A stretch of 64,000 nt of DNA from an uncultured Thermoplasmatales archaeon (GTDB lineage Archaea > Thermoplasmatota > SW-10-69-26 > JACQPN01 > CAZDGP01): NCBI GenBank assembly GCA_964505085.1, contig CAZDGP010000002.1, positions 32,421 through 96,420 on the forward strand. Direction: 5' to 3'. A program made the translations under genes and the position numbers. Below the pieces are notes generated by a model. It saw only the letters and a program-made list of their open reading frames with translations. It was not told the DNA's origin and made no database searches. Of the stretch, positions 5,551-57,136 are shown piece by piece; the stretch's first letter is position 1, and the number at the start of each line of letters is the position of its first letter.

Positions 5551-7188
5551 TCATGGTGCCGCGGGCAACGTGAACCGGAACGTGGTCCCCTCCCCGCCGG
5601 GAGCGGTCTCGATGCTGACCTCCCCGCCGTAGCTCTCCACGATGCGCTTCACGATGGCGAGGCCGATGCCGGTGCCGTCGGCACCGGACTTGGGGTGGAG
5701 GCGCTGGAAGATGTCGAAGACACGGTCCCTGTGGCGCTCCGGGATGCCCATGCCGTTGTCGGTGATGCGGAAGGCCACCATCCCGTCCTCCTCCCGGGCG
5801 TCCACCTCCACCTCCGGGGGGACGTCGGGGCGGTGGAACTTCAACGCGTTGGAGAGGAGGTTCGTGAGGACCTGCGCCAGGTGCGTGGGGTCCACCTCCA
5901 CCACCGGGAGAGCCTCCTCCACGTGGACGGTGCCGCCGGTGGACTCGATGGTCCCGTCCAGGTCCGCGAGCACCGACGCCAGCACCTGCTCTGGGTCCAC
6001 GAGGCGCGCGTGCCCGTCACCGCTTTGCAACTGCGCGTAGGAGAGCAGGTCCTTCACGATGGCGTCCATGCGCTCGACCCCGTCCCGGGCGAACTCGATG
6101 TACTCCCGCGCCTCCTCCGGGAGGTCCTCGCCGTATCGGCGCTCCAGGAGCTGGACGTAGCTCCCCACGGTGCGCAGGGGGCTGCGGAGGTCGTGGCTCG
6201 CCACGAGGGCGTACCGCTCCAGCTCCTGGTTCGAGACCTCGAGCTCCCGGAGCACCCGGGCGCGTTGCGTAACGTCCGTGGAGACACCCACCACGCGCTC
6301 CACCTCACCGTCGGGACCGAAGACCGGTTGGTACCACGTGTCCAGCACCACGTCCCCCAGGTCGAGCTCCACCCGCAGCTGCTCCCCCTCGAGGGCTGCG
6401 TCCAGAGCGTCGAGAACCTCCGGGAAGTCCGCGTACATCTCGAAGGCGTCGTTCCCCACGGCCTCGTGGGGTTCCAACCCCAACGCCGAGAGGCCGCGTC
6501 CATCGCTGAAGGTGATGGTCCCGCCGGGGTCCAGGGCGAAGAGGATGATGGGCGCGCCCTCCACCACCGTGCGGAGGTGCGCCTGGCTTCGCTCCAGCTC
6601 CTCCTTGGCTTCCCGGGTCTCCTCCATGAGAGCCCGCATGCGCTCCCGACCCCGGGACTGTGCCAGGGTCTCCTCCGCCAGGAGACCCCCCAGCGCCCCC
6701 ACGAAGACGATGTAGAGGCTCTGCAGCGCCCACTCGCCGAGGTTCGCGGTGAGCTCGCCGGCGAAGGCGAGCATGGCGCCGTAGGCCAAACCGTACCCGA
6801 CGCTCACCACGAGGGTCTCCCGGAGGTCGTAGCGGAAGGCGATGGCGGCGATGCTCACGTACCACAGCATGAAGAAGGGGCTCGAGAAGACCCCGGTGGC
6901 GAGGATCCAGAACGTGATGAGGCCCGCGTCCGAGATGGAGGTGAAGTAGCTCGTGAGGACCACGGGGAAGTGCCGGTAGGGCTCGAAGAGGATGGTGCCG
7001 GCGGAGTAGGCCCCCGCGACGCCGATGATGGTGTAGGCGAGCCAGGGGATGGTGCCCGACTTCTCCATGAGGAGGAGGTAGAAGAGGCTGTTCACCGCCA
7101 CCACCGCGAAGCGCACGATGGCTACGTTGCGCTCCGCCGCGTAGACCTTCTCGGCGACGGCCTGGTCATCGAAGGAGGGCGGAGCCAT
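5551..7188 (-). CDS. Sensor histidine kinase (N-terminal multi-TM domain, PAS, HisKA, HATPase_c).
   Basis: HisKA H-box LVASHDLRSPL, N/G boxes LSNALKF..ITDNGMGIP..GTGIGLAIV, and an N-terminal hydrophobic region. Confidence 0.9.
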   Translation of the reverse strand: MAPPSFDDQAVAEKVYAAERNVAIVRFAVVAVNSLFYLLLMEKSGTIPWLAYTIIGVAGAYSAGTILFEPYRHFPVVLTSYFTSISDAGLITFWILATGVFSSPFFMLWYVSIAAIAFRYDLRETLVVSVGYGLAYGAMLAFAGELTANLGEWALQSLYIVFVGALGGLLAEETLAQSRGRERMRALMEETREAKEELERSQAHLRTVVEGAPIILFALDPGGTITFSDGRGLSALGLEPHEAVGNDAFEMYADFPEVLDALDAALEGEQLRVELDLGDVVLDTWYQPVFGPDGEVERVVGVSTDVTQRARVLRELEVSNQELERYALVASHDLRSPLRTVGSYVQLLERRYGEDLPEEAREYIEFARDGVERMDAIVKDLLSYAQLQSGDGHARLVDPEQVLASVLADLDGTIESTGGTVHVEEALPVVEVDPTHLAQVLTNLLSNALKFHRPDVPPEVEVDAREEDGMVAFRITDNGMGIPERHRDRVFDIFQRLHPKSGADGTGIGLAIVKRIVESYGGEVSIETAPGGEGTTFRFTLPAAP

Positions 7189-7257
7189 GGTGATCGACTA
7201 CCGGTCTGGTGGGTGTCCCGGGGAGCAGGAGGAGGGTCCCGGGCCGGCTCCGCGTCG

Positions 7258-8388
7258 TTAGGAGGCGGCGGGGAGCTCCACCGTGAACGTGGTGCCGTCG
7301 GAGCCCGTCTCGAACGTGATGGTACCTTCGTGGGACTCCACGATGCGCCGTGCGATGCTGAGGCCCAAGCCGTCGTTCCCCTCCTGGGTGCTGAAGAAGG
7401 GATCGAAGATCCGGTCCTGGACGTCGGAGGGGATGCCGGGTCCGGAGTCCCGCACGCGGAGCACCGCGCTCCCGTCCTCGGTGTCGGTCTCGAGCACCAC
7501 GCTGCCCTCGCGGCTGCCCACGGCCTCCGTGGCGTTGGTGAGGAGGGCCAGGACCACCTGCTGGACCTGGGGCGTGTTCACGAGCACCGCGGGCGTGGGG
7601 TGGAGGTCCGTCTTCACCTTCACGCCCCGGTCGTCCGCAGGTGCGAAGAGGTCAAGTGCCTCCTCCGCCACCTCCTGCAGATCGCGTTCCTCCCGGTCCT
7701 CGGGGCCGGTGCGGTAGAAGCGCCGGAGGTCCCGGAGGTGCCGGTTGATGCGGTCCACGGCCTCCATGGAGCCCACGGTGGCCTCGTTCACCTGCTCCAT
7801 GAGGTTGGGGAGGTCCGCGTCACCTTCGTCGGCTGCCGCGTTCACGCGGCGTCGGATCTCGAAGAGGTTGTTGCTGATGGTCTCGGTGAAGCTGTTGATC
7901 TCGTTGGCCACGTCGCTCACGAGGGCGCCCATGGTGCTGAGCTTCTCCGTCATGCTGAGCTTCCTGCGGAGCTCCTCCATCTCCCGGGTCGCCTGGTGGC
8001 GCTCCATGGCGTAGCGCATGACGCGGGCCAGGAGGTTCCCCGTGTACTCGCCCTTCACCACGTAGTCCTGGGCGCCCTCCTTCAGGGTGTCCAGCGCCAT
8101 CCGCTCGTCCTCCAGCCCCGTGAGCACCACGATGGGGATGCGGGTCGCGGCGTTCCGCATGCGACGCACGGTGTCGAGGCCGGAGCTGTCGGGGAGGCTC
8201 AGGTCCAGGAGGGCCACGTCGAACTCCCGTTCCGCCACCGCCTGCAGCCCGTCCGCGAGGTTGTCCTCGTGCACCAGGTCGATGCGGAGGTTCTGCACGT
8301 CCTTCAGCTCCTCCTCGATGAGGCGGGCGTCGCCGGGGTTGTCCTCGATCAGGAGCACGTCCATCTCGTCGGTGGTCACGATGTTCAC
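7258..8388 (-). CDS. Hybrid response regulator/histidine-kinase-like protein (REC, then HisKA-like, then HATPase_c).
   Basis: N-terminal receiver (DVLLIEDNPGD..LLDLSLPD..), C-terminal LTNATEA..VRDSGPGIP..GLGLSIARRIV. Confidence 0.85.
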   Translation of the reverse strand: MNIVTTDEMDVLLIEDNPGDARLIEEELKDVQNLRIDLVHEDNLADGLQAVAEREFDVALLDLSLPDSSGLDTVRRMRNAATRIPIVVLTGLEDERMALDTLKEGAQDYVVKGEYTGNLLARVMRYAMERHQATREMEELRRKLSMTEKLSTMGALVSDVANEINSFTETISNNLFEIRRRVNAAADEGDADLPNLMEQVNEATVGSMEAVDRINRHLRDLRRFYRTGPEDREERDLQEVAEEALDLFAPADDRGVKVKTDLHPTPAVLVNTPQVQQVVLALLTNATEAVGSREGSVVLETDTEDGSAVLRVRDSGPGIPSDVQDRIFDPFFSTQEGNDGLGLSIARRIVESHEGTITFETGSDGTTFTVELPAAS

Positions 8389-8393
8389 GTCCT

Positions 8394-8849
8394 TCAGTTG
8401 GGGGGGAGATTCACCTTCTCGAGCCAGAAGCCCTCGATGTACCGGACGAGGTCCATGAACTGGTCGAGGTCGACGGGTTTGGTGATGTAGCAGTTCGCGT
8501 GCAGGTCGTACGCGTTCACGATGTCGGACTCGGCTTCGCTGGTGGTGAGCACCACCACGGGGATGCGGCGGAGGTCGGGGTCGGCCTTCATCTCCGCCAG
8601 GACCTCCCGCCCGTCCTTCTTGGGCAGGTTGAGGTCCAGGAGCACGAGGTCGGGGTGTGGGGCGTCGGTGTACCCGTCGCCCTGCTCGAGGAAGGCCATG
8701 GCCTCCTCGCCGTCGGCGGCCACGTGGAGGTCCAGCGGGAGCTTCCCCTCCGCTAGCGCCTCCTTGGTCAGCCGCACATCACCCGGGTTGTCCTCCACGA
8801 GGAGGATGCATTTCGGTTCCCCTTGTCCCTTCAAGTTGTTCGACCCCAT
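8394..8849 (-). CDS. Single-domain response regulator (CheY-like receiver).
   Basis: [27 protein letters not shown] receiver motifs. 151 aa. Confidence 0.85.
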
Positions 8850-9089
8850 GGTGCCGTTCGTCTGCGCAGGTGCTTCGCCCCGTGCACGAGCAGGTGCCCG
8901 GGTGCACCCGACCCAGCCCGAAGCCGCTTCGGCACTTGTGCTTCCGCCTATTTAGGGCTTCCCTCATGGACCCTTGCCCATGCGGACCTTCAACACCCCT
9001 AGGGGAGAGTCCCTGGGTTTCAAGTAGGGGAAGCGACCGTTTTCCGGTACGTCCGCGGGGGTGTCGGAGCGCTCCCGGGAGGTTGGTCC

Positions 9090-9674
9090 ATGATCGAAGA
9101 AGGAAGGAACCCCCAGTCCGTCGAGGCGGGAGCGGAACCCCGCCCGGGGGCTCAAGGATCCTCCGGTTGGCGGAGGGTCCGAGACAGGTTCCTCACCCTC
9201 TTCACACGGCGCATGGGCGAGGGGGGAAGCCACGGCTTCGGGGACGATCACGACGCCCGCTTCCTCGCCGCCCTCACGGACCTCGAACCGGCCGACGCTT
9301 CCGGCAACCTCTCAGCTGCGTTGTGGGACCTGGGTCACGCAGCCGGCACGCACGTGTACGGTGTGCACGTGGTCGAGGATGACCTGGCCGAGGCCCTGGC
9401 GGGTCTCTCCCACCAGGTGGAGGCCACGGGGCTCGGTGTGCTCGAGGAGGTGGACCGGTTCCACCGAAGCGTGGACGTCGAGCTCGAACCATCCCGCGAG
9501 GTGGCGAACGCGTTCCACGGCTGGGTGGACGCGTACGTCGGCGGGCTCCTCGAGGGGAGCATCGCACGCGGGTTCAACGTGAACGTGCATGTGGAGACGC
9601 GGGACGTCCACGTCTTCCACATGGAACTGCAGGGGGGTCCCGAGGGGCCCCAGGAGCTTTCGCATGGTCGGTGA
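9090..9674 (+). CDS. Hypothetical protein, first gene of the pilus/GTPase locus.
   Basis: ATG preceded by a GGGAGGT SD-like sequence 7 nt upstream. The stop overlaps the next start (ATGGTCGGTGA). The C-terminal two-thirds is acidic and protein-like; no recognisable domain. The N-terminal 40 aa is Arg-rich, so the true start may be internal. Confidence 0.45.
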   Translation: MIEEGRNPQSVEAGAEPRPGAQGSSGWRRVRDRFLTLFTRRMGEGGSHGFGDDHDARFLAALTDLEPADASGNLSAALWDLGHAAGTHVYGVHVVEDDLAEALAGLSHQVEATGLGVLEEVDRFHRSVDVELEPSREVANAFHGWVDAYVGGLLEGSIARGFNVNVHVETRDVHVFHMELQGGPEGPQELSHGR

Positions 9675-10056
9675 AGCCAAGGAAAGGTTGGGTCAGATCC
9701 TCGACGGCCATCTGGGGTCAGACGGGGTGCTGGGAACGAGCCTCGTGAGCCGCGACGGCATCCCCGTGCTCTCCCGCTTGACGGAGCGCATGGAGGATAT
9801 GCCCTTCAGCCTCCTCGTGGAGGGCGCCATGGCCGCCACCCTCATGGGTGCGGCCGAGGTGGCGGTGCAGGAGGTGGGTGGCGGTCCTCCCCGCCGTGTC
9901 GTGGTGGAGACCGAGAAGGTGAACATGGTCCTCGTGGGCGTGAGCAACGACCTCATCCTCGTCACGGTGGCGGAGTCCGCCGCTGAGCTCGGGGAGCTGA
10001 TGAGGGCCGTTGGCGTCGCCGCCGAGGACGTGGCGGAGGCGGTGGCGTCAGCGTGA
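9664..10056 (+). CDS. Roadblock/LC7 domain protein (MglB-like).
   Basis: MVGEAKERLGQILDGHLGSDGVLGTSLVSRDGIPVLSRL..SLLVEGAMAATLMGAAE..VNMVLVGVSNDLILVTV is a typical Roadblock/LC7 profile. Translationally coupled to its neighbours. Confidence 0.75.
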   Translation: MVGEAKERLGQILDGHLGSDGVLGTSLVSRDGIPVLSRLTERMEDMPFSLLVEGAMAATLMGAAEVAVQEVGGGPPRRVVVETEKVNMVLVGVSNDLILVTVAESAAELGELMRAVGVAAEDVAEAVASA

Positions 10057-11279
10057 CCCCCCAGGCTTCCGCGGACGCGGTGTCCGCCATGGGCGTGGAG
10101 CAGCTCGATCGACTCATCGCGCCCCTTCCCCGAGGCTCCCGTGTGCTCATCAGCAACGAGCCGGGGGTGGAGGGTGAGCCCTTCCTCTACCAGGCCGCGA
10201 GCCACCACGTGGAGGGCGGAGGCGACGTGGTGTACGTCGTGACGAACCGTCCGCCGGAGAGCATCCTCCGGAGCATGAGCGAGTTCGACCTGGCTCCCGA
10301 TCACGATCACGTGCATTTCATCGACGCGTACTCCCCCGGGCTCGGGCTCACGGGGGACGCGGAGTTCCCCGTCATGGAGCCCTCGAACCCGGGCGCCTTC
10401 GTGGAGGCCGTGGAGGCCGCCGCGGAGAAGTACCCCGACGCGCTCCTCATCGTCGACAGCCTAAGTCACCTCCTGGACCATGGCACCATGGAGGAGGTCG
10501 AGGGCTACCTGCCGCGGCTCGCGTCGGCCATGGGCGTCTTCCAGCTTGCCATCGCGCTCTTCATCGCGTGGCCCTACGAGGAGGACCTCACGGGGTTCCA
10601 CGAGATCTTCGACTCCGTCGTGACCCTCCACGGCGTCGAGGGACGCATCCTGCTCAGCCAGTACTTCCAGGTGGACCGCGCGGACTGGGTGGAGGACCTT
10701 GACACCCGGCCGCGCCTCTACAAAGCTATCCGACCCGGGGGAATCTACGTGTACATCCCGAAGATCGTCATCACGGGCCCGTACAACGCGGGCAAGTCCA
10801 CGTTCGTCAACAGCGTCAGCGATTCAAGCGTCAGCGTGGACCGTCTCGGGACCACGGTGGCCATGGACCACGGTCACGTGGAGGTGGACGGCATCGTGGT
10901 GGACCTCTTCGGCACCCCCGGCCAATCCCGCTTCGACCCCATCCTCGAGACCATCGGGGAGCGGGGTCTCGGCGTCCTCGTCATCGTGGACGCCACCCGT
11001 CCCGACGCCTTCCCCCGAGCCCAGGAGATGCTGGAGGCGTTGTGGCGCTACGGCACCCCGGCCCTCGTGGTGGCGAACAAGCAGGACCTGCCGGGGGCGT
11101 TGACACCCGAGGAGGTCCGGGAGCAACTGGACCTCCCCCCGAACGTGGGGGTCGTCGGTTGCGTGGGCGAGGAGCCCGAGAGCGCCCGGGAGGTGCTCTC
11201 GTCCCTCATCGAGGAGGTGCTGAGCTCCAGCGCCTTCGCTGGAGGCCTGGAGGAGGGTCACGAGGGGGTGGTCGCGTGA
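10053..11279 (+). CDS. Fusion of a degenerate KaiC/RecA-like pseudo-ATPase domain (N-terminal) to a Ras-like small GTPase domain (C-terminal).
   Basis: The N-terminus has the KaiC-like layout (RLIAPLPRGSRVLISNEPGVEGEPF..) but the Walker A is degenerate, with no GK[ST]. The C-terminus has canonical G1 GPYNAGKST, a switch-I Thr, G3 DLFGTPGQ and G4 NKQD. The GTG start overlaps the upstream stop (GTGA). Confidence 0.8.
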   Translation: MTPQASADAVSAMGVEQLDRLIAPLPRGSRVLISNEPGVEGEPFLYQAASHHVEGGGDVVYVVTNRPPESILRSMSEFDLAPDHDHVHFIDAYSPGLGLTGDAEFPVMEPSNPGAFVEAVEAAAEKYPDALLIVDSLSHLLDHGTMEEVEGYLPRLASAMGVFQLAIALFIAWPYEEDLTGFHEIFDSVVTLHGVEGRILLSQYFQVDRADWVEDLDTRPRLYKAIRPGGIYVYIPKIVITGPYNAGKSTFVNSVSDSSVSVDRLGTTVAMDHGHVEVDGIVVDLFGTPGQSRFDPILETIGERGLGVLVIVDATRPDAFPRAQEMLEALWRYGTPALVVANKQDLPGALTPEEVREQLDLPPNVGVVGCVGEEPESAREVLSSLIEEVLSSSAFAGGLEEGHEGVVA

Positions 11280-12022
11280 GCGGCAACGACGGGTCCCTCG
11301 TTGGCCTCGGTGTACCCCGGCTGGACGAGCTTCTGGGCGGCGGCATCCCCGGCGGCACCACGGCCCTCGCCTACGGTCCCCCGTACTGCGGGAAGACCCT
11401 CCTGGGGCGGTTGTTCCTCCTGGATGGGCTCCACCGCGGTGAGGCCGTCCTCATCGTCCTCACCGACGACACCGCAGAGGATGTGGCCGAGGAGCTCACG
11501 CGCATGGACAGCGAGTTCCCGCGCTTCGAGGACCAGGGCCTCGTGCACTACGTGGACCTCTACAGCTTCCTGCTGGGCCCCGACGTGGCCAAGCGGAAGA
11601 ACGCGGAGTACGTGGAGGGCCCCACCGACCTGAACACGGCGCTCATGGCGGTGAACGCGGCGGAGCGACGCATCCTCAAGGCCACCGAGAAGCACAGGCT
11701 CCTCTTCGACAGCGTGAGCACCCTCATGGTGCACAACAACGCCCAGACGGCCTTCCGGTTCCTCCAGCTATTCCTGGGGCGGGCCCGGCAGGCCGGCGCC
11801 ACGAACCTCCTGCTCCTGGAGCGGGGGGTCCACGAGGAGAACGAGGTGGAGCTTGCCAAGACCCTTAGCCGGGGCCTCATCGAGATGCGTACCGACGAGG
11901 ACAAGCACCAGCTCCGTGTGCAGGGCTTCCGGTCGAACCAGAACACCTCCTGGGTGGACTACACCTTCGACGACACGAGCTTCGATGTCACAGGGAGCTT
12001 CGCGGCGGGTAGAATCAAGTAG
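11276..12022 (+). CDS. KaiC/FlaH-like ATPase (RAD55/KaiC family), intact Walker A.
   Basis: VSGNDGSLVGLGVPRLDELLGGGIPGGTTALAYGPPYCGKTLLG..LIVLTDD. The GTG start overlaps the upstream stop. The track ORF 11042-12022 over-extends into the previous gene. Confidence 0.8.
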   Translation: MSGNDGSLVGLGVPRLDELLGGGIPGGTTALAYGPPYCGKTLLGRLFLLDGLHRGEAVLIVLTDDTAEDVAEELTRMDSEFPRFEDQGLVHYVDLYSFLLGPDVAKRKNAEYVEGPTDLNTALMAVNAAERRILKATEKHRLLFDSVSTLMVHNNAQTAFRFLQLFLGRARQAGATNLLLLERGVHEENEVELAKTLSRGLIEMRTDEDKHQLRVQGFRSNQNTSWVDYTFDDTSFDVTGSFAAGRIK

Positions 12023-12103: not shown

Positions 12104-13390
12104 ATGCATCCCCACCAACCCAGGAAGGACCGGCGGCACCGCGACGCCCAACGCTTCAGCGCCACCGACGGGGCCGTCTCGGACATCGTGGGGGAGATCC
12201 TCATGACGGCGATCTTCATCGTCGTCTTCTCGGCAGCTGGCGTCACGCTCCTCACCCGCGCCCCCCCGGAGGACCTCGTCCACGCCGACATCCAGGCGGA
12301 GAACCGGTCCACCCTGCGCCTCGTCCACGTGGGCGGGGAGCGTTTGGACGTGGACGGGTCCGACATCATCCTGGACCTCGACGGCACCGAGGAGCGCCAC
12401 GCGCTCTCGACGTACGCTTACGCGTTCCAGGATGACTCACCGGATCATTGGGACCCCGCGGAGCGCCTGTGCGTCTCCTGCGAGTTCCCCGGCCAGGTCA
12501 TCCTCTCCGTGGAGGTGGTGACGGAGCGCCAGACCGTGATGTCGTGGCTTGGTCGTTACGAGCCGGTGAACGCCACCGGCGGCGTCTTCGACCCCGGCTT
12601 CGCCTACGAGGACGTGGGCAACGATGCCCTCTACGTGGAGGGCACGGACGCGAGCATCGCGAACGCCGACGTGCACGATGGCACGTACACGGTGAGCAAC
12701 GCGAGCCGCGGCCTCGTCATCCCCCCGTCCGTGGGGGACATCCAGCGCTCCGGCGGGCCCGTGGAGTTCATCGCCGGTGGCAACGTTCGGATCGACGTGG
12801 ACCTCACGTCCGGGGACCGGCGCGTGCTCCTCCGGAGCTCCGGGGGCAACGTCTCGGCCTTCGGCGTCACCGTCTCCAGCGCGCGGGAGCTCCTGGTGCA
12901 GGCGCCCTCGGGTCACGTGGACGTCCACAGCTCCACCATCGCCTCCACGGAAGAGCACGTGCGCGTGGACGCCGGCACCGGCATCGACGCCGACGGTTCC
13001 ACCTTCACCCTCACCACCGGGAAGCACATCGAGCTCGTGACAGCCGCGGGGGACCTCCGGGCGAAGGGCGCCACCCTCCAGGCGAGCAACGAGCACGTGG
13101 TCCTCCAGGTGAACGGCACCGGGAACGTCCTCGCGAACGCGTCCACCCTCCAGGCTGAGAAGCGCCTGGAGCTCACCACGGGCGACGGGGACCTCTGGAT
13201 CAGGAACGGCACCGTCACCTCCGAGGATGAGTTCATCCGGTTCGACGTGGGCGCGTCCACGAACACCGCCCACGTGGAGGGCCTGGACATCAGCGAACCG
13301 AACGACGACGGAGCCGTCTCGTTGTGCCCCAGCGGCGCCAACGTGGACGGAACCCCCGACACCGGGAGCGTGGACAACACATGCAGCTGA
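12104..13390 (+). CDS. Pilin-like protein with an archaeal type IV pilin N-terminal domain (class III signal peptide).
   Basis: N-terminus ..RDAQRFSATDG|AVSDIVGEILMTAIFIVVFSAAGVTLL matches the Pilin_N (RAVSPVIGVILMVAITV-like) hallmark. 428 aa, Thr/Ser/Gly/Asp-rich beta-type sequence. Confidence 0.7.
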   Translation: MHPHQPRKDRRHRDAQRFSATDGAVSDIVGEILMTAIFIVVFSAAGVTLLTRAPPEDLVHADIQAENRSTLRLVHVGGERLDVDGSDIILDLDGTEERHALSTYAYAFQDDSPDHWDPAERLCVSCEFPGQVILSVEVVTERQTVMSWLGRYEPVNATGGVFDPGFAYEDVGNDALYVEGTDASIANADVHDGTYTVSNASRGLVIPPSVGDIQRSGGPVEFIAGGNVRIDVDLTSGDRRVLLRSSGGNVSAFGVTVSSARELLVQAPSGHVDVHSSTIASTEEHVRVDAGTGIDADGSTFTLTTGKHIELVTAAGDLRAKGATLQASNEHVVLQVNGTGNVLANASTLQAEKRLELTTGDGDLWIRNGTVTSEDEFIRFDVGASTNTAHVEGLDISEPNDDGAVSLCPSGANVDGTPDTGSVDNTCS

Positions 13391-15348
13391 CCCCCGTCCC
13401 ATCCCGGCTCGGTCCACGTGACGGTGCCGTGTCGGACGTCATCAGCAACATCCTCATGGTGGCCATCACGGTGCTCCTCATCGGGAGCCTCGCCCTCTCC
13501 ATCCCCCTGGTCCTCGGGGATCCCGGGGAGGCCCTCAACGCTGACCTGCGCGCCTCCAACACCGGCACCTCCATGCGCGTCGCCCACGTGGGCGGGGAGC
13601 ACGTGGACGAGGGCCAGATGCGGATCTCCGTCACACGGGACGGGTCCACCACCACCGAGCCTCTGAGCGCCTTCGCCGGGTGCGTGACGGGCGGGGACGG
13701 CCTGAGCGATGGCCTCTGGTCCGTGGGCGAGACCCTGGACGTCACGTGCCGGTACGCGGGCCAGAACACCACCATCAGCGCCGTGATCCTCGTGGGTTAC
13801 GACGCCATCCAGGTGGACTGGTCCGGCGCCGTCATCCTGGGGACCGGGAGCCCCGGGAACACCGCGCCCGTGGCCGACGCCAACGGGCCCTACACCCTGG
13901 ACGAGGGGAGCTCCAAGACCCTCGACGGGACGAACACCACGGACGACGACGGCGACCCCCTCACGGTCTCCTGGACCTTCGTGGGGGACAACCAGGGCGC
14001 CACCCTCACCGACGAGGACACCCTCACCCCCACCTTCACCGCGCCCGGGAACGTGGACGGGGACAAGATCGTGACGGTGAAGCTCACCGTGGACGACGGG
14101 AACATCACCGACACCGACCGGACCACCGTCACCATCCTGGACGCCGACGGAAGCGGGAACGCGCCTCCGGAGGCGGACGCGGGCGGGCCCTACAGCGTGA
14201 ACGAGGAGGAGTCCATCCTCCTGGACGGGACGGGAAGCGACGACCCCGACGGCGACAGCCTCACCTTCGAGTGGACCATCACCGGTGACGCCCACGGGGG
14301 TGTCCTCACCGACGCCACCACCGCCACACCCACCTTCGAGTCCACCACGAACGTGGACGGGGACAAGTCCGTCACGGTGCGGGTGAACGTGAGCGACGGG
14401 AACGGCGGCACCGACAGCGACCAGACCACCGTCACCATCGTGGACGCCGACGGGTCCGGCGGGGGCGTCAGCCACACCTACGTCGATTGCCCCATGAGCG
14501 CCACCACCGGCACGGTCTCGAACTGCAGCAACGCGCGGTCCGACTCCGACGGCGGCGCCTCCGCGGTCCTCACCGAGGAATCCACCAGCACCTCCACCAC
14601 GAGCAAGTACGACGCCGACACCCTCGTGAGCTCCACGTCCGTCACCGACCCCTCCAACGTGCTCGTCTCCGACGACGCCCGGGCGGACTTCACGAGCACC
14701 TCCAGCACGCTCGAGGTCACGGGCTTCGACCTGCCCGACGACGCCACGGGCGTGACCAGCGTCGTCATCGGGTTCGAGGCTCGGAAGGACCAGGGCGGCG
14801 GGCAGAACCCCACGCTGGAGCTCACGTACGATGTGGGCGGCACCGCGGGGTCCACGGGCCTCTCCACCACCGTCTCCACCACGTCCGACGCGGCCCACAC
14901 GGTGAACGTCACCGGGGACCGATCCTGGACCGTCGCCGACGTGGAGGACATCTCCCTCACCCTCGAGATGACGGACCAGCAGAACCGGGTCGCGGAGGTG
15001 GACCACGTCTTCGTCACCGTCCGCACCGAGAGCGGGGACGAGTACAACCTCCTCGTGGAGGGGAGCTTCTCCAGCGTGCCCGACGGCACCACGCACCTCC
15101 TGCAGATCCGGTACCACATCGACAGCGACGCCGACGCCGACACCTTCGACGTGGAGGTGTGGGACGGGTCCACCTGGAACGACCGCGGGGACCTCACGTC
15201 CACGAGCTTCGACACCTTCGAGTACACCTTGACCGCCGGCGAGTGGCAAAGCGGCTTCCCGCAGGTCCGCTTCGTGGACAAGATCCCAGATGACCCCGAC
15301 GGCGCGCATTCCCTCACCATCGATTACCTCCGGGTGGAATCCTCATGA
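13381..15348 (+). CDS. Large pilin-like adhesin: Pilin_N-type N-terminus plus two PKD-like repeats and a Thr/Ser-rich region.
   Basis: MQLTPVPSRLGPRDG|AVSDVISNILMVAITVLLIG. Two repeats of ..A(D/N)AGGPY(T/S)(L/V)(D/N)E..LDGT.S.D.DGD.L...W.. TVTI(L/V)DADGSG look PKD-like. The start overlaps the previous stop (ATGCAGCTGA). Confidence 0.75.
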   Translation: MQLTPVPSRLGPRDGAVSDVISNILMVAITVLLIGSLALSIPLVLGDPGEALNADLRASNTGTSMRVAHVGGEHVDEGQMRISVTRDGSTTTEPLSAFAGCVTGGDGLSDGLWSVGETLDVTCRYAGQNTTISAVILVGYDAIQVDWSGAVILGTGSPGNTAPVADANGPYTLDEGSSKTLDGTNTTDDDGDPLTVSWTFVGDNQGATLTDEDTLTPTFTAPGNVDGDKIVTVKLTVDDGNITDTDRTTVTILDADGSGNAPPEADAGGPYSVNEEESILLDGTGSDDPDGDSLTFEWTITGDAHGGVLTDATTATPTFESTTNVDGDKSVTVRVNVSDGNGGTDSDQTTVTIVDADGSGGGVSHTYVDCPMSATTGTVSNCSNARSDSDGGASAVLTEESTSTSTTSKYDADTLVSSTSVTDPSNVLVSDDARADFTSTSSTLEVTGFDLPDDATGVTSVVIGFEARKDQGGGQNPTLELTYDVGGTAGSTGLSTTVSTTSDAAHTVNVTGDRSWTVADVEDISLTLEMTDQQNRVAEVDHVFVTVRTESGDEYNLLVEGSFSSVPDGTTHLLQIRYHIDSDADADTFDVEVWDGSTWNDRGDLTSTSFDTFEYTLTAGEWQSGFPQVRFVDKIPDDPDGAHSLTIDYLRVESS

Positions 15349-16730
15349 AGTCCAACCGCCATGCACGATCCCGCAGCCTCCGAACCGACGACAGCGGCGT
15401 CGCCATCGTGGTGGGCGCCGTCCTCCTGGTGGGGCTCTTGGTGGCGAGCCTCGCCACCGTGAACCAGCTCTACGTTCCCAAGTGGGAGGAGGACAAGGAG
15501 GCCGCGCACATGCAGGAGGTGATGAGCCAGTTCGCGGCGCTCAAGGCCGTGCTGGACCAGCAGGCGAGCAACCGCACCGCGGGTACGGTGGCGAACCCCA
15601 TCAGCCTGGGGACCCAGTCCTCCGGTTTCTTCAGCCTCCCTGACGTGGCGGATTCCCTCCGGTTCAAGAAGGGCACGACCTCGGTGGAGGTGGAGTCACC
15701 GAACCTCCTCGTGCTCCAGGCGGACGGGACGAGCACCAGTGGCTCCCAGGAGGAGTGGGAGGGCGTGGAGGAGAACACCACGGTGGAGGACGTGGAGGAG
15801 ATCCGTTCCTTCCGCCTCCGCATCGACTGCATCGGGGTCCTCCCCTCGGGTTGTGCGAACGACGATGGCGACTCCATCACGGTGGAGGTTCGGGAGGCCG
15901 GCGGAAGCTTCGCCGGGGACTTCCGCGTGATGGTCAAGGACTACCCCAGCGGGTACACCGTGAACTTCCGCGTGCGGAACGCCGACGGCACGGTGGTGTA
16001 CGACCAGGGGGAGTCCTACTTCAACCAGGACGAGCAGGAGCCCTACTGGGTGAACCTCCTCCAGGATGACTTCCGCTTCGACCGGGTGCTCGACTCGGCG
16101 GAGACGCCCTTCAACGTGTCCCTGGTGGAATCCGGCCTCACGGGGGAGTACAGCCTCACGTACGTGCAAAAGACCGAGGATGGCGACAGCGTTCTCGTGG
16201 GCGGTGGGGGGGACGCCATCGCCAACTACACCCGGACGTTCAACGGTGGACGCCTCATGTACGAGTCGTCCAACCGCCACTTCCCGGACCAGACCCTCAT
16301 CCTGGAGAACGGTGGCCTCATCCTCACGCAGTCGGGGCGCTCCGTGTTCCGCGTGAGCCCCGACTTCAGCGTGAACCTCGTGGGGAACCGCACGGACCTG
16401 CGTCTCACCGTGCCCGTGACCACGGGTCCCGAGTCGGGGCTCAGCGGCTCCCGCACCTACACGGTGGAGACCACGCCCCAGATCACGCGGTCCCTCCAGG
16501 GGCAGACCGCCCGGTACTACGTGAACATCACCACGGAGTACGCCGACGTGTGGGCCGACATGTGGGAGGAGGAGCTCCGGGGTGCCGGCCTGGACCCCGC
16601 GTGGTACGACGTCACCGTCACGCCCACCCAGGCTCAACTCATGTTGGAGGGATCCTCCACCGAACCGGGGTACCGGGACATCACCGTGAGGTTCGGTCAG
16701 GGAAGCGTCAAGGCGGTGGTGACGGGATGA
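15345..16730 (+). CDS. Pilin-like protein (hydrophobic class-III-type N-terminus), large extracellular beta-rich domain.
   Basis: ..RSLRTDDSG|VAIVVGAVLLVGLLVASLATVNQ. ATGA overlap with the upstream gene. 461 aa. Confidence 0.65.
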   Translation: MKSNRHARSRSLRTDDSGVAIVVGAVLLVGLLVASLATVNQLYVPKWEEDKEAAHMQEVMSQFAALKAVLDQQASNRTAGTVANPISLGTQSSGFFSLPDVADSLRFKKGTTSVEVESPNLLVLQADGTSTSGSQEEWEGVEENTTVEDVEEIRSFRLRIDCIGVLPSGCANDDGDSITVEVREAGGSFAGDFRVMVKDYPSGYTVNFRVRNADGTVVYDQGESYFNQDEQEPYWVNLLQDDFRFDRVLDSAETPFNVSLVESGLTGEYSLTYVQKTEDGDSVLVGGGGDAIANYTRTFNGGRLMYESSNRHFPDQTLILENGGLILTQSGRSVFRVSPDFSVNLVGNRTDLRLTVPVTTGPESGLSGSRTYTVETTPQITRSLQGQTARYYVNITTEYADVWADMWEEELRGAGLDPAWYDVTVTPTQAQLMLEGSSTEPGYRDITVRFGQGSVKAVVTG

Positions 16731-16847
16731 TGCCTCCCATCCCGACCCGACCCTCCACGGACTGGGGGAACTATCCGGGGGGATTTATGGAGGGAGCGGC
16801 AGAGGGGGCTCCGGGAGTGACCACGCTGGCACGAGGGGTGACCTACC

Positions 16848-18755
16848 ATGGCTGATGATGACAACGAAGGGAAGGGGAGCAAGCGTGACGGTGATGGAGA
16901 CGAGCCCCAGAAGCCGACGATGCGCCAGGTGGGGGAGACGGACATCTCCCCCATGAAGGCCCCCGAGGAATCCGCACGTTCCCCCGATGCACCTCTCGAC
17001 CTTGCGGACACCGACACGAAGGACTTCCTGAAGGACCTGGAGCGCAAGCAGAAGGAGCGCCTGGAGCAGAAGCTGGCGGAAGCCCGGGAGATGGAGCGCC
17101 GGGCGAAGAATCTCGTGAAGAAGGTGCAGGAGCAGCAGAAGTTCCGCCGGGACTACGAGGCGCACTCGGCGTACGTGGAACAGCTCGCGCCGGAGCTGGG
17201 CCTCGATCCCACGCGCCCCGTCACGGAGATCCCGGACCTCGAGGGCACGGACCTCACCCAGGTGGAGTTCACCACCATGGTGGAGGGCCGCAGCTACGTG
17301 CGACTCGTGTACGACGAGACACGGAACCGCCACCTCTACCAGGTCATCGAACCCGACCTCACGAGCAGCGAGGAGGAGGTGCTGGAGTTCCTCCGGGACA
17401 CCCTCGTGCGCACCCTCGACGGTCGCCACGACCCCGACGAGGACTGGGAGCAGTACCTCGTGGACGCCATCGAGCGCGCCATCGTCGACCACAGCATCCT
17501 CGTGGACGAGGTGAGCAAGGAGCGCCTCGAGTACTACCTCATCCGGGACTTCCTCGGGTACGGCCCCATCGACGTGATGATGAAGGACCCCATGATCGAG
17601 GACATCAGCTGCGACGGTCCCGGGATCCCCATCTACGTCTTCCACCGGCATCACGAGAGCATCAAGAGCAACGTGGTCTTCGAGGACGAGCGGACGCTGG
17701 ACAGCTTCGTCATCCGCCTGGCCCAACGCTCGGGGAAGCACATCAGCCTGGCCGAGCCCGTGCTCGATGCAACCCTCCCCGACACGAGCCGGCTCCAGGC
17801 CACCCTGAGCAAGGAGGTCACGCCCCGGGGCTCGAGCTTCACCATCCGGCGTTTCCGCGCCGACCCTCTCACGCCCCCGGACCTCATGCGTTTGGGCACG
17901 CTGAACGCTCCCATGGCCGCCCTCATGTGGTTCGCCATGGAGCACGGCAGCAGCATGATCTTCGCCGGCGGCACCGCGTCCGGGAAGACCACGACGTTGA
18001 ACAGCGTGAGCCAGTTCATCCCGCCGGCGAAGAAGGTGGTGAGCATCGAGGACACCCGCGAGATCAACCTCCAGCACGAGAACTGGATCGCGGGCGTCAC
18101 GCGGGAGGGCCTGGAGGGAACCCAGGGCCAGGCCACGAAGGTGGACATGTTCCGCCTCCTCACGGCGGCGCTCCGGCAGCGCCCCGAGTACCTCCTCGTG
18201 GGTGAGGTGCGGGGTGCGGAGGCCTTCACGCTCTTCCAGGCCATGGCCACGGGCCACGCCACGTACAGCACGCTCCACGCCGACAGCGTGCAGTCCGCGG
18301 TCTACCGGTTGGAGAACGAACCCATCAACATCCCCCGCCTCATGCTCCAGACCCTCGACGCCGTCGCCGTGCAGGTGCAGGTTCGGGTCCGGGGCCAGAT
18401 GGTGCGCCGCATCAGCGAGTTCGTGGAGATCGTGGACATCGACCCCGACAGCGGCGACCTCCTCACGAACACCGTGTTCAAGTGGGATCAGGGATCGGAC
18501 ACGTACAAGTACATGGGGAAGAGCGTCATCCTCGAGCAGATCATGGACAAGATCAACGTGTCCGCCCACGAGATCGAGGAGGAGTGGAACGACCGCACCC
18601 TCGTCCTCGAGTGGATGATGGAGAAGGGCATCCGCCACATCACGGACGTGGCCAACGTCCTCTCCAGCTACTACAGCAACCCCGACGACCTCATGGCGAA
18701 GGTGCGGTCGAGCATGGGTCACGAGACCAAGGAGGGGACCGCCCGTGGGGCTTAA
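16848..18755 (+). CDS. Type IV pilus/archaellum assembly ATPase (FlaI/TadA/VirB11 family) with an about 100-aa charged N-terminal extension.
   Basis: Walker A GGTASGKTTTLNS plus SIEDTREINLQHENWIA and other FlaI/TadA hallmarks. SD-like GAGGGGTGA 8 nt upstream, and a TATA-like GATTTATGG at about 16777. Confidence 0.9.
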   Translation: MADDDNEGKGSKRDGDGDEPQKPTMRQVGETDISPMKAPEESARSPDAPLDLADTDTKDFLKDLERKQKERLEQKLAEAREMERRAKNLVKKVQEQQKFRRDYEAHSAYVEQLAPELGLDPTRPVTEIPDLEGTDLTQVEFTTMVEGRSYVRLVYDETRNRHLYQVIEPDLTSSEEEVLEFLRDTLVRTLDGRHDPDEDWEQYLVDAIERAIVDHSILVDEVSKERLEYYLIRDFLGYGPIDVMMKDPMIEDISCDGPGIPIYVFHRHHESIKSNVVFEDERTLDSFVIRLAQRSGKHISLAEPVLDATLPDTSRLQATLSKEVTPRGSSFTIRRFRADPLTPPDLMRLGTLNAPMAALMWFAMEHGSSMIFAGGTASGKTTTLNSVSQFIPPAKKVVSIEDTREINLQHENWIAGVTREGLEGTQGQATKVDMFRLLTAALRQRPEYLLVGEVRGAEAFTLFQAMATGHATYSTLHADSVQSAVYRLENEPINIPRLMLQTLDAVAVQVQVRVRGQMVRRISEFVEIVDIDPDSGDLLTNTVFKWDQGSDTYKYMGKSVILEQIMDKINVSAHEIEEEWNDRTLVLEWMMEKGIRHITDVANVLSSYYSNPDDLMAKVRSSMGHETKEGTARGA

Positions 18756-19629
18756 CCGGTACCAGCGCTTCGCCTACCGCCTCTTCGGCTCCAGCCTGGA
18801 GGAGACCGCGCAATCGAACGAACGGCTCCGCAGCAGCCTCCAGAAGGCCCACATCTACATGCGCCCCGAGGTGTACCTCAGTTACGGGTACATGAACATG
18901 CTCGTCACCTTCGTGGCGAGCCTCGTGCTCGTCCTCCTGGCGGGCATCCTCTTCGCCGCCGGCGTCCTCCCCCTCTCGCCGGCCATCGTCGCCTTCATGA
19001 TCCCCGTGCCGCTGCTCCTGGCGGCCATCGTCTACCTCATCACGTACGTGGTGCCGGACCTCCGGGCGAGCGTCCGGGCCACGGACATCGACGCGAAGGT
19101 GCCCTACGCCTTGAACTACATCGCAACCATGGCCAACGCCGGGGTCACCCCCGACGAGATCTTCGACAGCCTCAGCCGCCAACCCATCTACGGGGAGGTG
19201 GCCAACGAGGCCGCGTGGATCAGCCGGGACCTTCGTCTCCTCGGGAAGGACACCGTGACGGCGATGAACGACGCTATCGACCGCAGCCCCAGCATCAAGT
19301 GGCAGGACCTCCTCCAGGGCGCCATCGCCACCCTCACGAGCGGCGGCAGCCTCAAGGACTACTTCCTCGCGAAGAGCGACCAGTTCATCCAGGAGAACCG
19401 CCGGGAGCAGGTGCAGTTCATGGAGAGCCTGGGCGTCATCGCCGAGAGCTTCGTCACCGTCGTGGTGGCCGCCCCGCTCTTCTTCATCGTGCTCCTCACC
19501 GTCATGACCACCTTCGGGACCGGCGACAACAGCGGGTTCACCCTGGGGTACTTCCTCATCCTCGTGCTTCTACCCATGAGCCAGGCCGGGTTCGCAGCCA
19601 CCATCAAGCTCATGACACCGGAGGTGTAA
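18745..19629 (+). CDS. TadC/FlaJ-like membrane protein, part 1 (T2SSF domain).
   Basis: Overlaps the ATPase stop. A cytoplasmic T2SSF-like domain (PYALNYIATMANAGVTPDEIFDSLS..) is flanked by TM helices. Confidence 0.85.
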   Translation: MGLNRYQRFAYRLFGSSLEETAQSNERLRSSLQKAHIYMRPEVYLSYGYMNMLVTFVASLVLVLLAGILFAAGVLPLSPAIVAFMIPVPLLLAAIVYLITYVVPDLRASVRATDIDAKVPYALNYIATMANAGVTPDEIFDSLSRQPIYGEVANEAAWISRDLRLLGKDTVTAMNDAIDRSPSIKWQDLLQGAIATLTSGGSLKDYFLAKSDQFIQENRREQVQFMESLGVIAESFVTVVVAAPLFFIVLLTVMTTFGTGDNSGFTLGYFLILVLLPMSQAGFAATIKLMTPEV

Positions 19630-24387: not shown

Positions 24388-24417
24388 GACGGGGGTTCGG
24401 CGGCTGTGGGTGACGAC

Positions 24418-25428
24418 ATGCAGGGACGACGAACGGTCCTCCTGCTGGCCATCCTGGGTGTGCTGGGGAGCCTACCCGGGGGCGTGCTGGCGGTGGACGA
24501 TGGCACGAGCTTGGATGGCACCACGGACACGTTGAACGACAGCGTCGACGGTGCCGTGGACGACGTCACCGGGCAGACCGAGTCCCGCACGGGCGCCGGG
24601 ATCCCCAGCGTGGACACCACCGTGGGCGTGGCCCTGAGCCCCGTGACGGACGCCACCGCCACCTGCTACGATCGGTACGACGGGTTCTTCCTCGAGGTCT
24701 TCCCCCCGGAGCTCGACGGGTACAGCTCCGCCCTCGCTTACAGCGTATGCTACGCTCCCGGCACCGCCCGTGACGAGGTGGCGAACCAGTGCAACATCCT
24801 CATCTGGAGCACCTACGGCGACGGCGCTCAGGAGGAGCGGGAGATGGCTCGCGACCTCATGGAGGCCGTCTGCTGGGAGGCCATCCACGAGGGGAACCTC
24901 GACGAGGGCGTGGGCGGGGTGGACGCCTGCGCCGCCACCGACACGCTCACGGTGAGCACCACGTTCAACAGCCCCGTGAGCACCGACTACCTCCTGGGGC
25001 TCCTGGTGACCGCCCAGGGCACCCCCTGCGAGAGCGTCCTCGCCGCAGGCCACGACGCCAACGCGCGCGCCTCGGCCACGGTGGAGCAAGTGGACAGCGA
25101 CACGAAGCGCGTGACACCGCAAGTGAGCGCCCAGGGTGACACCGCCGGCACGTGGATCGTCGAGGCTCGCAGCCGCGTGCTCTCCACCAGCAGCTTCGAG
25201 TCGGGGTGGAGCGTCGTGAGCGGCTCCGGCGAGACCCTCACATGCAACTTCGACGTTGCCCTCACCGACACGAACGGCGGCTCCTGCACGAGCGTGGGCT
25301 CCAGCGTCGACGTGACGGAGTCCAACTACGTCGTGTACCGGTGGCAGGTGGACTACACCCTCGTGTGGGTGGACGGCACCGGCACGGCCCACCACGTGCT
25401 CTCCGGGACCGACGGCGGGTACCTGTGA
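24418..25428 (+). CDS. Secreted hypothetical protein (signal peptide, Cys-containing, Thr/Ser/Asp-rich).
   Basis: MQGRRTVLLLAILGVLGSLPGGVLA signal peptide. No recognisable domain. Confidence 0.7.
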   Translation: MQGRRTVLLLAILGVLGSLPGGVLAVDDGTSLDGTTDTLNDSVDGAVDDVTGQTESRTGAGIPSVDTTVGVALSPVTDATATCYDRYDGFFLEVFPPELDGYSSALAYSVCYAPGTARDEVANQCNILIWSTYGDGAQEEREMARDLMEAVCWEAIHEGNLDEGVGGVDACAATDTLTVSTTFNSPVSTDYLLGLLVTAQGTPCESVLAAGHDANARASATVEQVDSDTKRVTPQVSAQGDTAGTWIVEARSRVLSTSSFESGWSVVSGSGETLTCNFDVALTDTNGGSCTSVGSSVDVTESNYVVYRWQVDYTLVWVDGTGTAHHVLSGTDGGYL

Positions 25429-29886: not shown

Positions 29887-30561
29887 ATGAGCTCCGCCGT
29901 CGAGGGGTTCACCGTCACCGGCACCTGGGAGGACGTGGTGGAGCACGGGGAACGCGTGAGCTACGCGCTCCAGCAGGTGGGCGCCACCAACGGCAACGCG
30001 CCCTCCGGGTTGAACGAGGACGAGGCGTGGCAGCTCTTCACCCAGTGGGAGGAGTGGCGCCCCAAGCGGGAGGAGGAGCTCGACGACGAGATGGACCAGA
30101 AGACCGCCGAGCAGGCGAGCATCGGCGAGGGGGAAGGCGAGCGGAAGGGTCGGGAGCCCCAGGAGGACATGCAGCGCGCGGGGGAGCGCTTCACCAGCGG
30201 CCTCCGGGAGTCCAACGGGGACCTGAACACCCTGGTGGGGAAGTTCACGGAGTCCACGAGCTACGTGGCCCGCGCCCTGGACAGCGTGGGTCGACGCATG
30301 CTCCGCTCCCTCGAGGAGGTCATCTACCGCCGCGTCATGACCCGCATCGCACCCTACTACTTCGACAACCCCCTCGTGAGCGCGAGCATCCACCGGGAGA
30401 ACGGCGGCAGGCCCCAGCCTGCGCCGGGGACCAACGAACCCAACGCCGACGAGATGGACGAGGACCCCGACGAGATGTTCGTCCTCGAGGTGCACGTCCA
30501 CGACGACGACCTCAAGGACGCGGTGGACAGGCACCTCCACGGCGAGGACGCCACCGCGTGA
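29887..30561 (+). CDS. Acidic hypothetical protein; possibly the Pit accessory protein (DUF47/PhoU-like) given its position before the PiT permease.
   Basis: 224 aa, helical/acidic composition, immediately upstream of the PiT gene. No motif-level proof. Confidence 0.55.
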   Translation: MSSAVEGFTVTGTWEDVVEHGERVSYALQQVGATNGNAPSGLNEDEAWQLFTQWEEWRPKREEELDDEMDQKTAEQASIGEGEGERKGREPQEDMQRAGERFTSGLRESNGDLNTLVGKFTESTSYVARALDSVGRRMLRSLEEVIYRRVMTRIAPYYFDNPLVSASIHRENGGRPQPAPGTNEPNADEMDEDPDEMFVLEVHVHDDDLKDAVDRHLHGEDATA

Positions 30562-52256: not shown

Positions 52257-52257
52257 G

Positions 52258-53130: not shown

Positions 53131-53218
53131 CTGGTAGAAGTAGTTTTCCCCGACCTCCGGTGGACCACCGTGGAGCAAACATTTTTAGCAACCTTCTCCG
53201 TTGCGCCCCCCAGTCCCC

Positions 53219-57035: not shown

Positions 57036-57136
57036 GGTGACGAGGCCCAGAAGGCACCGCCTGGGCCTTGAACCCATCCCTTCGCGGTGGCGTGCTTCAG
57101 GGAGGTTCAAGTGACCGTGGCCGCTTGGGGGACGGG

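Follow-up and report, generated by a model that had tools for sequence, protein, structure and literature searches.

Described systems and how the locus compares

Three consecutive genes for large pilin-like proteins, named P1, P2 and P3 here, lie beside the genes of a putative pilus motor in DNA from an uncultured Thermoplasmatales archaeon (assembly GCA_964505085.1, contig CAZDGP010000002.1, positions 32,421 to 96,420). This whole stretch of 64,000 nucleotides was analysed and is called the window below, and coordinates are counted from its first letter. The closest described systems are the type IV pilus (T4P) loci of euryarchaeal clade 2, whose plan comprises an ATPase, tadC (often as two genes), pilins of the PilA family and a minor pilin of arCOG02911 (PMC4858521). 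The same paper reports that KaiC-family ATPases and Roadblock proteins (arCOG02603) are frequent in archaeal T4P loci, that big proteins with signal peptides in these loci are possible adhesins or minor pilins, and that major PilA genes often stand alone (PMC4858521). According to a review, little is known of what archaeal minor pilins do (PMC4371748).

An earlier sequence-only reading of this DNA had described P1 to P3 as open reading frames of 428, 655 and 461 amino acids (aa) and had quoted their N-termini. The three frames exist as it described them, and the N-termini were quoted verbatim. All three are also NCBI gene products, from a contig of 110,295 bp, and each is a singleton at 90% identity, as is every other protein of the window that was checked for this. 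They stand in a string of nine recognisable genes that runs from about 9.6 to 21.5 kb on the + strand, head to tail and with short gaps or overlaps; P1 and P2 overlap by 10 nt, and P2 and P3 by 4 nt (ATGA). The pilin and motor genes of the string are the following.

12104 to 13390, + strand: P1, 428 aa; Pilin_N, 35.6 bits
13381 to 15348, + strand: P2, 655 aa; Pilin_N, 41.3 bits, and PKD_4, 57 bits
15345 to 16730, + strand: P3, 461 aa; DUF7289, 31.3 bits
16848 to 18755, + strand: PilB/FlaI-type assembly ATPase; T2SSE, 125 bits, and FlaI model, 401.6 bits (cut-off 550)
18745 to 19629, + strand: TadC/PilC-like platform protein 1; T2SSF, 55.5 bits
19634 to 21520, + strand: TadC/PilC-like platform protein 2; T2SSF, 58.2 bits

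We think it fairly probable that P1 to P3 are the pilins which this locus supplies to a euryarchaeal type IV pilus whose motor is encoded immediately downstream, and that they are large modular minor, priming or tip subunits, with the small PilA of the shaft coming from elsewhere. The locus follows the published ground plan; it overturns nothing, and this kind of system is already known. As in clade 2 T4P, for example the PilB3 and PilB4 loci of Haloferax volcanii (PMC4858521), a gene for a FlaI/PilB-type ATPase is followed by two tadC-like genes, Pilin_N pilins are accompanied by a conserved all-beta, FlaFind-type pilin of 250-550 aa next to the ATPase, and genes for a KaiC-family ATPase and a Roadblock protein are nearby. 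Unlike in clade 2, both PilA-family genes carry large C-terminal modules here (whole proteins of 428 and 655 aa against about 130-190 aa), the locus has no small PilA, and one of its proteins joins a KaiC-like domain with a small GTPase. The likeness to clade 2 is one of gene content and layout. What goes somewhat beyond the published descriptions is that both PilA-family genes are modular with no small pilin alongside, that no described family accommodates the beta-helix of P1 or the C-terminal domain of P2, and that the triad of genes recurs in distant loci.

A second set of relatives in design is bacterial. In the modular type IV pilins of bacteria (PilB and PilC of S. sanguinis, CofB of ETEC, TcpB of V. 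cholerae, ComZ of T. thermophilus and GspK of the type II secretion system), an effector is likewise grafted onto a pilin carrier (PMC8179133). The beta-solenoid of ComZ resembles the module of P1, and the beta-repeat and beta-sandwich domains of CofB resemble those of P2 (PMC8179133). The bulky S. sanguinis PilB, CofB and TcpB have been modelled or proposed at pilus tips, with ComZ and GspK as further modular examples (PMC8179133). As a group, these proteins are predicted to be minor pilins with a place at the tip. Unlike these proteins, P1 and P2 belong to the archaeal Pilin_N branch and have neither the N-methylation motif nor E5, and the archaeal proteins are known from sequence alone. The survey of bacterial modular pilins searched only for the signature IPR012902, and archaea are absent from its main text (PMC8179133).

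The archaellum (ArlB/FlaB, ArlF/G, ArlH, ArlI, ArlJ) shares with this locus a string of a FlaI-like ATPase, a FlaJ-like platform, a KaiC/FlaH-like ATPase and proteins with class III signals, but here the platform is split into two genes. A divergent archaellum was considered as an identity for the locus and rejected: scores stayed under the cut-offs for FlaI (401.6 against 550), ArlJ (69.9 against 550), ArlH (22.4 against 215) and FlaH (28.3 against 194), and P1 to P3 had no archaellin match.

Signal motifs of the three proteins

A cleavage rule for archaeal prepilins asks for G, A or S at -1 and for a charge at -2, and the FlaFind sites of H. volcanii read 'DSAV' in PilA2 and 'DAVS' or 'RAVS' in PilA3-6 (PMC4371748). 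Two patterns were applied: a strict FlaFind-like one with G or A at -1, and a relaxed class III pattern that was scanned through all six frames of the window. In the relaxed scan, P1, P2 and P3 were the only proteins of the window with a class III-like N-terminal signal; the other matches were internal transmembrane segments or signals of the Sec or lipoprotein type. P1 and P2 both read DG/AVS, which satisfies the rule of G, A or S plus charge ahead of a hydrophobic stretch of about 20 residues. P3 reads DS/GVA under the same rule and passes the relaxed scan. The cut can be placed in two ways, with the slash marking the bond.

P1 and P2: rule-based DG/AVSD; homology register DGA/VSD
P3: rule-based DS/GVAI; homology register DSG/VAI

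The homology register puts the A of 'GAVSD' at position 2 of the Pilin_N profile and, for P3, follows the family alignment. In all three proteins the bond is thus placed to within one residue. The leaders span about aa 1-23 in P1 (...TDG/A/VSD...), about aa 1-15 in P2 and aa 1-17 or 1-18 in P3. The class III signal peptides that the sequence-only reading had claimed for all three are borne out by the FlaFind-style check, in P1 and P2 by the rule and in P3 by the relaxed pattern together with family conservation. Its cuts agree with the rule-based placement for P1 and P2 (DG/AVSD) and with the homology register for P3 (DSG/VAI), to within that one residue. A predicted prepilin-type site stands ahead of the helix in all three proteins and is conserved among homologues. 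This goes against the first refuting observation that the sequence-only reading had named, an alignment with homologues that lacks a compatible cleavage motif; when P3 is aligned with its relatives, a prepilin-compatible G or A is present in 49/49.

Pilin carriers and grafted modules in P1 and P2

The Pilin_N family (PF07790/DUF1628) matches P1 at aa 24-93 (35.6 bits) and P2 at aa 16-87 (41.3 bits), both above the cut-off of 25.2. Each match covers profile positions 2-76 of 78, beginning at the signal motif, spanning the hydrophobic helix and reaching into a conserved '..H.GG..' strand. The first 130 or so residues of the two proteins are paralogous (33% identity, E 2e-18). Over about 100 residues the N-terminal module of P2 matches H. 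volcanii PilA2 (PDB 8FJ5 chain A) at E 1.6e-4; the match of P1 to 8FJ5 taken alone is weak (E 0.41). The N-modules of PilA2 (...DDSAVSPVIGVILMVAITVIL...) and P2 (...RDGAVSDVISNILMVAITVLL...) look alike, and a conserved 'H.GG' strand comes next in both. PilA2 is a 145-aa shaft subunit, as seen by cryo-electron microscopy (PMC10334743), whereas P1 and P2 run on for 270-500 more residues. These regions divide into modules as follows.

12581 to 13387, + strand: C-terminal beta-helix module of P1, 270 aa; invariant entry motif in the alignment
13858 to 14439, + strand: pair of PKD/Ig-like domains in P2 (aa 160-251, aa 268-353); PKD_4, 57 bits, and K319L-like_PKD, 55.2 bits (cut-off 27)
14458 to 15345, + strand: C-terminal region of P2, aa 360-655; a Ser/Thr-rich stretch, then a domain of about 230 aa common to orthologues

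P1 consists of a PilA-type pilin module (about aa 24-150) and the beta-helix module (aa 160-428). AlphaFold2 modelled aa 160-428 as an all-beta solenoid with a predicted local distance difference test score (pLDDT) above 90. The entry motif of this module, DPGFAYED...D...LV.P.SVG, is invariant and common to eight metagenomic proteins with differing pilin-like N-termini (P0124-P0131; related proteins carry P0-numbers and related loci L-numbers here). No Pfam family scored above its cut-off on the module, and the search of PDB sequences gave no relative. Foldseek against the PDB returned nothing significant, only generic beta-helices with a best E of 0.15. By these comparisons the predicted beta-helix is an undescribed family. 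Its conserved tail reads ..P.G..VVGTP..G.

The two PKD repeats that had been read in the middle protein are there, as two copies found with HMMER (PKD_4, 57 bits). The long Thr/Ser-rich stretch noted alongside them is also present, but it is moderate, with 45% S+T over about 60 aa (371-430). An orthologue of 581 aa in locus L001 has the same pilin module and C-terminal region and lacks the PKD domains, from which it follows that the PKD domains of P2 are an insertion. Residues 365-655 of P2 are 35.7% identical to this protein and 37% identical to a fragment in L003 (phmmer E about 2e-22 each). The C-terminal domain of about 230 aa, described as beta-rich, had no Pfam match and no PDB sequence match. 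The search with full-length P2 was dominated by PKD-only matches and gave no full-length relative.

Within the C-terminal part of P2 (14671-15345, + strand) there are apparently two sub-repeats, each of which closes with (I/V)-D-(Y/H)-(L/V)-x-V. The pilin-like proteins of L009, a locus of 42% GC, end in IDYIGLLLE (1386-2447), IDFVGVHVEY (6512-7501) and IDYLAVRLN (8477-9937). A profile of the P2 domain did not match the C-termini of the L009 pilins significantly (E 2.8), and no homology is claimed.

P1 and P2 are PilA-family carriers with C-terminal modules grafted on, and this composition fits adhesin-type minor or tip pilins. The sequence-only reading had seen the Pilin_N hallmark on all three proteins and had called all three far larger than typical pilins. 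Both statements hold for P1 and P2, whose hallmark matches are above the cut-off and whose size comes from the grafted modules. Neither holds for P3, which matches DUF7289 in place of Pilin_N and whose 461 aa are normal for its family.

P3, a DUF7289-type pilin

With DUF7289 (PF23960), P3 scores 31.3 bits (cut-off 27); the match lies at profile positions 107-201 and in a second stretch. P3 had no match to Pilin_N even at E values up to 5, and P0132, the closest relative of P3, scores just 14.5 bits with that profile (E 0.065). An exhaustive HMMER search gave 738 representative clusters of relatives at E <=1e-3 and 132 at <=1e-30; a word-indexed search gave one. Among the 150 best relatives, most have a length of 440-490 aa and align from one end to the other.

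Across 49 aligned members, the residue ahead of V is G in 28/49 and A in 21/49, and V itself is present in 43/49 and is followed by S, A or T. The two residues before the G or A are mostly D, E or R, about 20 hydrophobic residues come after, and the helix is followed by a conserved segment, Y-V-P-x-W-E-E-D-x-E-A-x-H-M. Short relatives of about 300 aa (P0276, P0277) match the DUF7289 profile from the signal motif on (positions 2-220 of 238) and lack the part that corresponds to P3 aa ~118-294. Compared with them, P3-type proteins as aligned carry an insertion of about 175 aa at this place, and two relatives of 870 aa have one more. The leaders of many family members open with MKANR (MKSNR in P3, 15345-15398, + strand), which is unusually conserved for a leader that is cleaved off.

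The AlphaFold2 model of P3, made with the 49-sequence alignment, has a mean pLDDT of 91.8 and a predicted template modelling (TM) score of 0.82. It shows one continuous helix of 62 residues (aa 13-74) and a beta-rich body. The pilin helices of H. volcanii and of Sulfolobus-type pilins have about 30 residues (PMC10334743), and the modelled alpha-1 helix of P3 is about twice that length. Foldseek against the PDB found nothing significant, with a weak likeness to a galectin-like beta-sandwich (best E 0.009, low TM score), and a tblastn search against plasmids gave no match to P3.

The signature minor pilin of euryarchaeal T4P, arCOG02911, is described as FlaFind-positive, all-beta and 250-550 aa long (PMC4858521). 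P3, at 461 aa, with a helix and a beta-rich body in its model and with its gene directly upstream of pilB, fits this description and is probably an arCOG02911 protein.

Glycosylation

P1, P2 and P3 contain 7, 6 and 6 N-x-S/T sequons. Pooled, this is 1.23 per 100 aa, against 0.24 per 100 aa in 22 cytoplasmic proteins of the window (a five-fold difference; binomial p = 1e-8), so the density check proposed in the sequence-only reading came out as an enrichment. A secreted or lipoprotein-like protein of 340 aa (24406-25428, + strand) has a normal low density of 0.29 per 100 aa, in contrast to P1 to P3. The oligosaccharyltransferase AglB, which that reading had also placed nearby, was confirmed by its STT3, AglB_core and AglB_L1 domains.

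54291 to 57167, - strand: AglB oligosaccharyltransferase, outside the operon; STT3, 85.8 bits, AglB_core-like, 58.7 bits, AglB_L1, 66.9 bits

PilA2 of H. volcanii carries N-glycans (PMC10334743). Together with the sequon enrichment and the AglB gene in the window, this makes N-glycosylation of P1 to P3 likely, with AglB as the candidate enzyme.

Related loci and the recurrent triad

The association of pilin-like genes with a PilB and TadC motor was also found in other loci. In L003 the order is a P2-type C-terminus, a P3 homologue (38%) and PilB (59% identity). L001 keeps a P2-like/P3-like pair, and in L006 the end of a TadC gene is followed by pilin-like genes, including one for a P1-type beta-helix protein. 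A scan of metagenomes with a four-sequence P3 alignment led to five distant loci. In the low-GC loci L008-L012, one or two Pilin_N genes lie directly upstream of each DUF7289-like gene, adjoining TadC. L009, and L010 with a near-identical layout, has two triads of Pilin_N, Pilin_N and DUF7289 genes by TadC, ordered as P1, P2 and P3 are. Loci of this type also hold canonical small PilA genes of 153-189 aa. In published supplementary data, the arCOG02911 genes of Aciduliprofundum, for proteins of about 300 aa, come immediately upstream of a FlaI-like ATPase and TadC (PMC4858521), the position that P3 has here.

A scan of genome contigs with the ATPase gave only two loci, both 45% identical, from Bathyarchaeota and Nitrososphaeria. 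The one from Bathyarchaeota (L004), which has two TadC genes, also has a KaiC-like gene and a 160-aa Pilin_N pilin a few kb downstream of them (6724-8105, - strand). The KaiC-like gene of L004 extends the association of KaiC with this type of ATPase beyond the lineage of the window.

One related protein, P0128, has a length of 723 aa and joins Pilin_N to two PKD domains and a P1-type beta-helix. Its architecture, together with the PKD-less orthologue in L001, shows that modules are shuffled among pilin carriers. The recurrence in distant loci of two PilA-type genes and one DUF7289-type gene suggests a conserved minor-pilin complex, as judged from gene order and family assignment.

One could go further and suppose that the triad is the archaeal counterpart of the bacterial minor-pilin complex for priming or tip formation (GspI-J-K, PilV-W-X), that its adhesin modules are swapped between lineages, and that an MglA/MglB-like pair of GTPase and Roadblock protein, fused to KaiC-like ATPases, switches its deployment here. 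The triad is translationally coupled in the window and recurs by TadC in distant methanogen-like loci. We hold this idea as a tentative one, with the odds against it. If it were true, the beta-helix, the PKD domains, the P2 C-terminal domain and the P3 insertions would be interchangeable modules on a conserved heterotrimer.

Proposed mechanism and competing explanations

If P1 to P3 are minor subunits of a type IV pilus, the Sec pathway would put them into the membrane, and a PibD-type prepilin peptidase, encoded outside the window, would cut them ahead of the hydrophobic helix. AglB would N-glycosylate the exposed domains, and the ATPase and platform would feed the subunits into the filament by their N-terminal helices. 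P1 to P3, in low abundance, would then prime the pilus or form its tip and would display adhesive modules, and the shaft would consist of a small PilA-type major pilin whose gene lies elsewhere. We infer low abundance and a priming or tip role from their bulk and tight translational coupling, for which bacterial modular pilins are the precedent, and the tip location of P1 to P3 is likewise put forward by analogy.

Several points weigh against this account. The shaft subunit is assumed, as the relaxed six-frame scan found no small major pilin in the 64-kb window. Among the open reading frames of the window judged likely to be coding, no Pfam match to a prepilin peptidase family was found. P3 passes the relaxed signal pattern but not the strict FlaFind-like one, and its probable membership of arCOG02911 is drawn from position, size and fold and not from a profile match. 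Structure prediction, a check that the sequence-only reading had proposed, gave a confident pilin-like model for P3 and a P1 beta-helix above 90, but it modelled the pilin module of P1 poorly (pLDDT below 50 at aa 42-157). Incorporation into a filament is predicted from gene adjacency and homology, and tip position, adhesion and glycosylation are predictions too.

The lack of a small pilin gene in the window also speaks for two other explanations. In one of them the shaft is built from one of the large proteins, such as P3 or P2 as the major subunit. The pilin and motor genes lie together in what looks like a self-contained locus, the 62-residue alpha-1 helix in the P3 model would be suited to packing in the core, and a place for modular pilins in the filament body is conceivable if their linkers are flexible (Raynaud et al., PMC8179133). 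Yet loci with the same triad order also carry small PilA genes (153-189 aa), and the published survey gives arCOG02911 the role of a minor pilin and notes that major PilA genes often stand alone (PMC4858521). Solved archaeal pili consist of subunits of about 130-165 aa, and modules of 270-500 aa on each subunit would be hard to pack. We regard a shaft of large subunits as quite improbable. A short pseudopilus or surface raft, comparable to the Sulfolobus bindosome (Bas) or to type II secretion, which would display the PKD and beta-helix domains for substrate binding or contact between cells, seems to us unlikely, though a little less so. Here the bulk of all three proteins counts in its favour, as does the bindosome itself, whose sugar-binding proteins are large and extracellular, carry class III signals, are substrates of PibD and depend on a PilB/PilC-like pair for assembly (PMC4371748). 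What tells against it is that P1 to P3 contain no solute-binding-protein domain, that P1 and P2 have complete PilA-type modules homologous to a filament-forming pilin, and that the ATPase and platform are far under the bindosome cut-offs (182.5 bits against 1000 for BasE and 38.2 against 1300 for BasF), so a bindosome was rejected as the identity of the locus.

The sequence-only reading had itself named a further way to be wrong, that the proteins belong to an unrelated surface or S-layer family with an ordinary Sec signal. On this explanation they would be secreted by Sec, held by an N-terminal signal anchor and unconnected with the pilus genes beside them. PKD and beta-helix domains are indeed common in generic surface proteins, and P3 has no Pilin_N match. 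The explanation is nevertheless effectively excluded by where the motif lies and how well it is conserved: a small residue and a charge precede the hydrophobic segment and are kept in 49/49 P3 relatives. The Pilin_N matches of P1 and P2 also reach about 50 residues past the helix, P2 is homologous to PilA2, and independent loci show the same synteny with PilB and TadC. We give this explanation hardly any weight.

Priming, tip makeup and surface binding of archaeal T4P are little understood. The locus offers a compact and testable set of candidates, with one confidently modelled DUF7289-type pilin and two PilA-type carriers that have separable effector modules. The idea of modular pilins is established in bacteria; if it is true here, it would extend to archaea and would name adhesin modules in archaea that have not been cultivated.

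Neighbouring genes and other features of the window

Upstream of P1, the string of nine genes begins with three further genes.

9589 to 10056, + strand: Roadblock/LC7 protein, MglB-like, the first recognisable gene of the string; Pfam Robl_LC7, 29.8 bits
10053 to 11279, + strand: KaiC-like domain (aa 14-173) fused to a Ras/Arf-like small GTPase (aa 235-362); NCBIfam small_GTP, 57.7 bits, Pfam KaiC, 30.8 bits, and Pfam Arf/Ras/MMR_HSR1
11258 to 12022, + strand: single-domain KaiC/FlaH-like ATPase with an intact Walker A motif (GPPYCGKT); Pfam KaiC, 87.4 bits

In the fusion protein, the Walker A motif of the KaiC part looks degenerate (ISNEPGVEGEP), and the GTPase part is apparently intact, with G1, G3 and G4 motifs read from the sequence as GPYNAGKST, DLFGTPGQ and NKQD. 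A Roadblock protein, a KaiC-GTPase fusion and a KaiC protein in a pilus operon resemble, in their domain content, an MglA/MglB-type switch wired to KaiC modules. The fusion is not mentioned in PMC4858521 or PMC4316618. PADLOC gave no defence-system match on the operon proteins.

Further upstream, and divergent from the pilus genes, are a stand-alone receiver (8394-8849, - strand), a receiver-HATPase hybrid (7258-8388, - strand) and a PAS histidine kinase (5551-7188, - strand). It is possible that these two-component genes (5551-8849, - strand) regulate the pilus locus. The divergent promoter region and the Roadblock gene flank an open reading frame of 194 aa (9090-9674, + strand), which may or may not be a gene; it is coding-like (GC3 0.83) and has no Pfam or PADLOC match. 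AT-rich boxes that resemble TATA boxes occur in GC-rich gaps before P1 (12020-12035), before PilB (16780-16795) and in the divergent region (8945-8960), with the letters TTGATATAC, GGATTTATGG and CCTATTTAGG, respectively. Picked out by eye, they suggest up to three promoters, for the regulators, the pilins and the motor.

Rfam and tRNA scans of the window found nothing. The G+C content is 65-72% throughout, and AglB and an EF-2-type elongation factor (Pfam) are archaeal markers in it. The lipoprotein-like or secreted proteins at 24406-25428 (+ strand, 340 aa) and 31848-33065 (- strand, 405 aa) have no Pfam match. A haem-copper oxidase cluster of COX1, COX3 and COX2 (50658-54247) adjoins AglB and, by its gene content, indicates an aerobic archaeon. 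The encoded proteome is acidic (median pI 4.7, n=26 proteins), and together with a strong DUF5828 match at 29887-30561 this suggests a halophile-like lineage.

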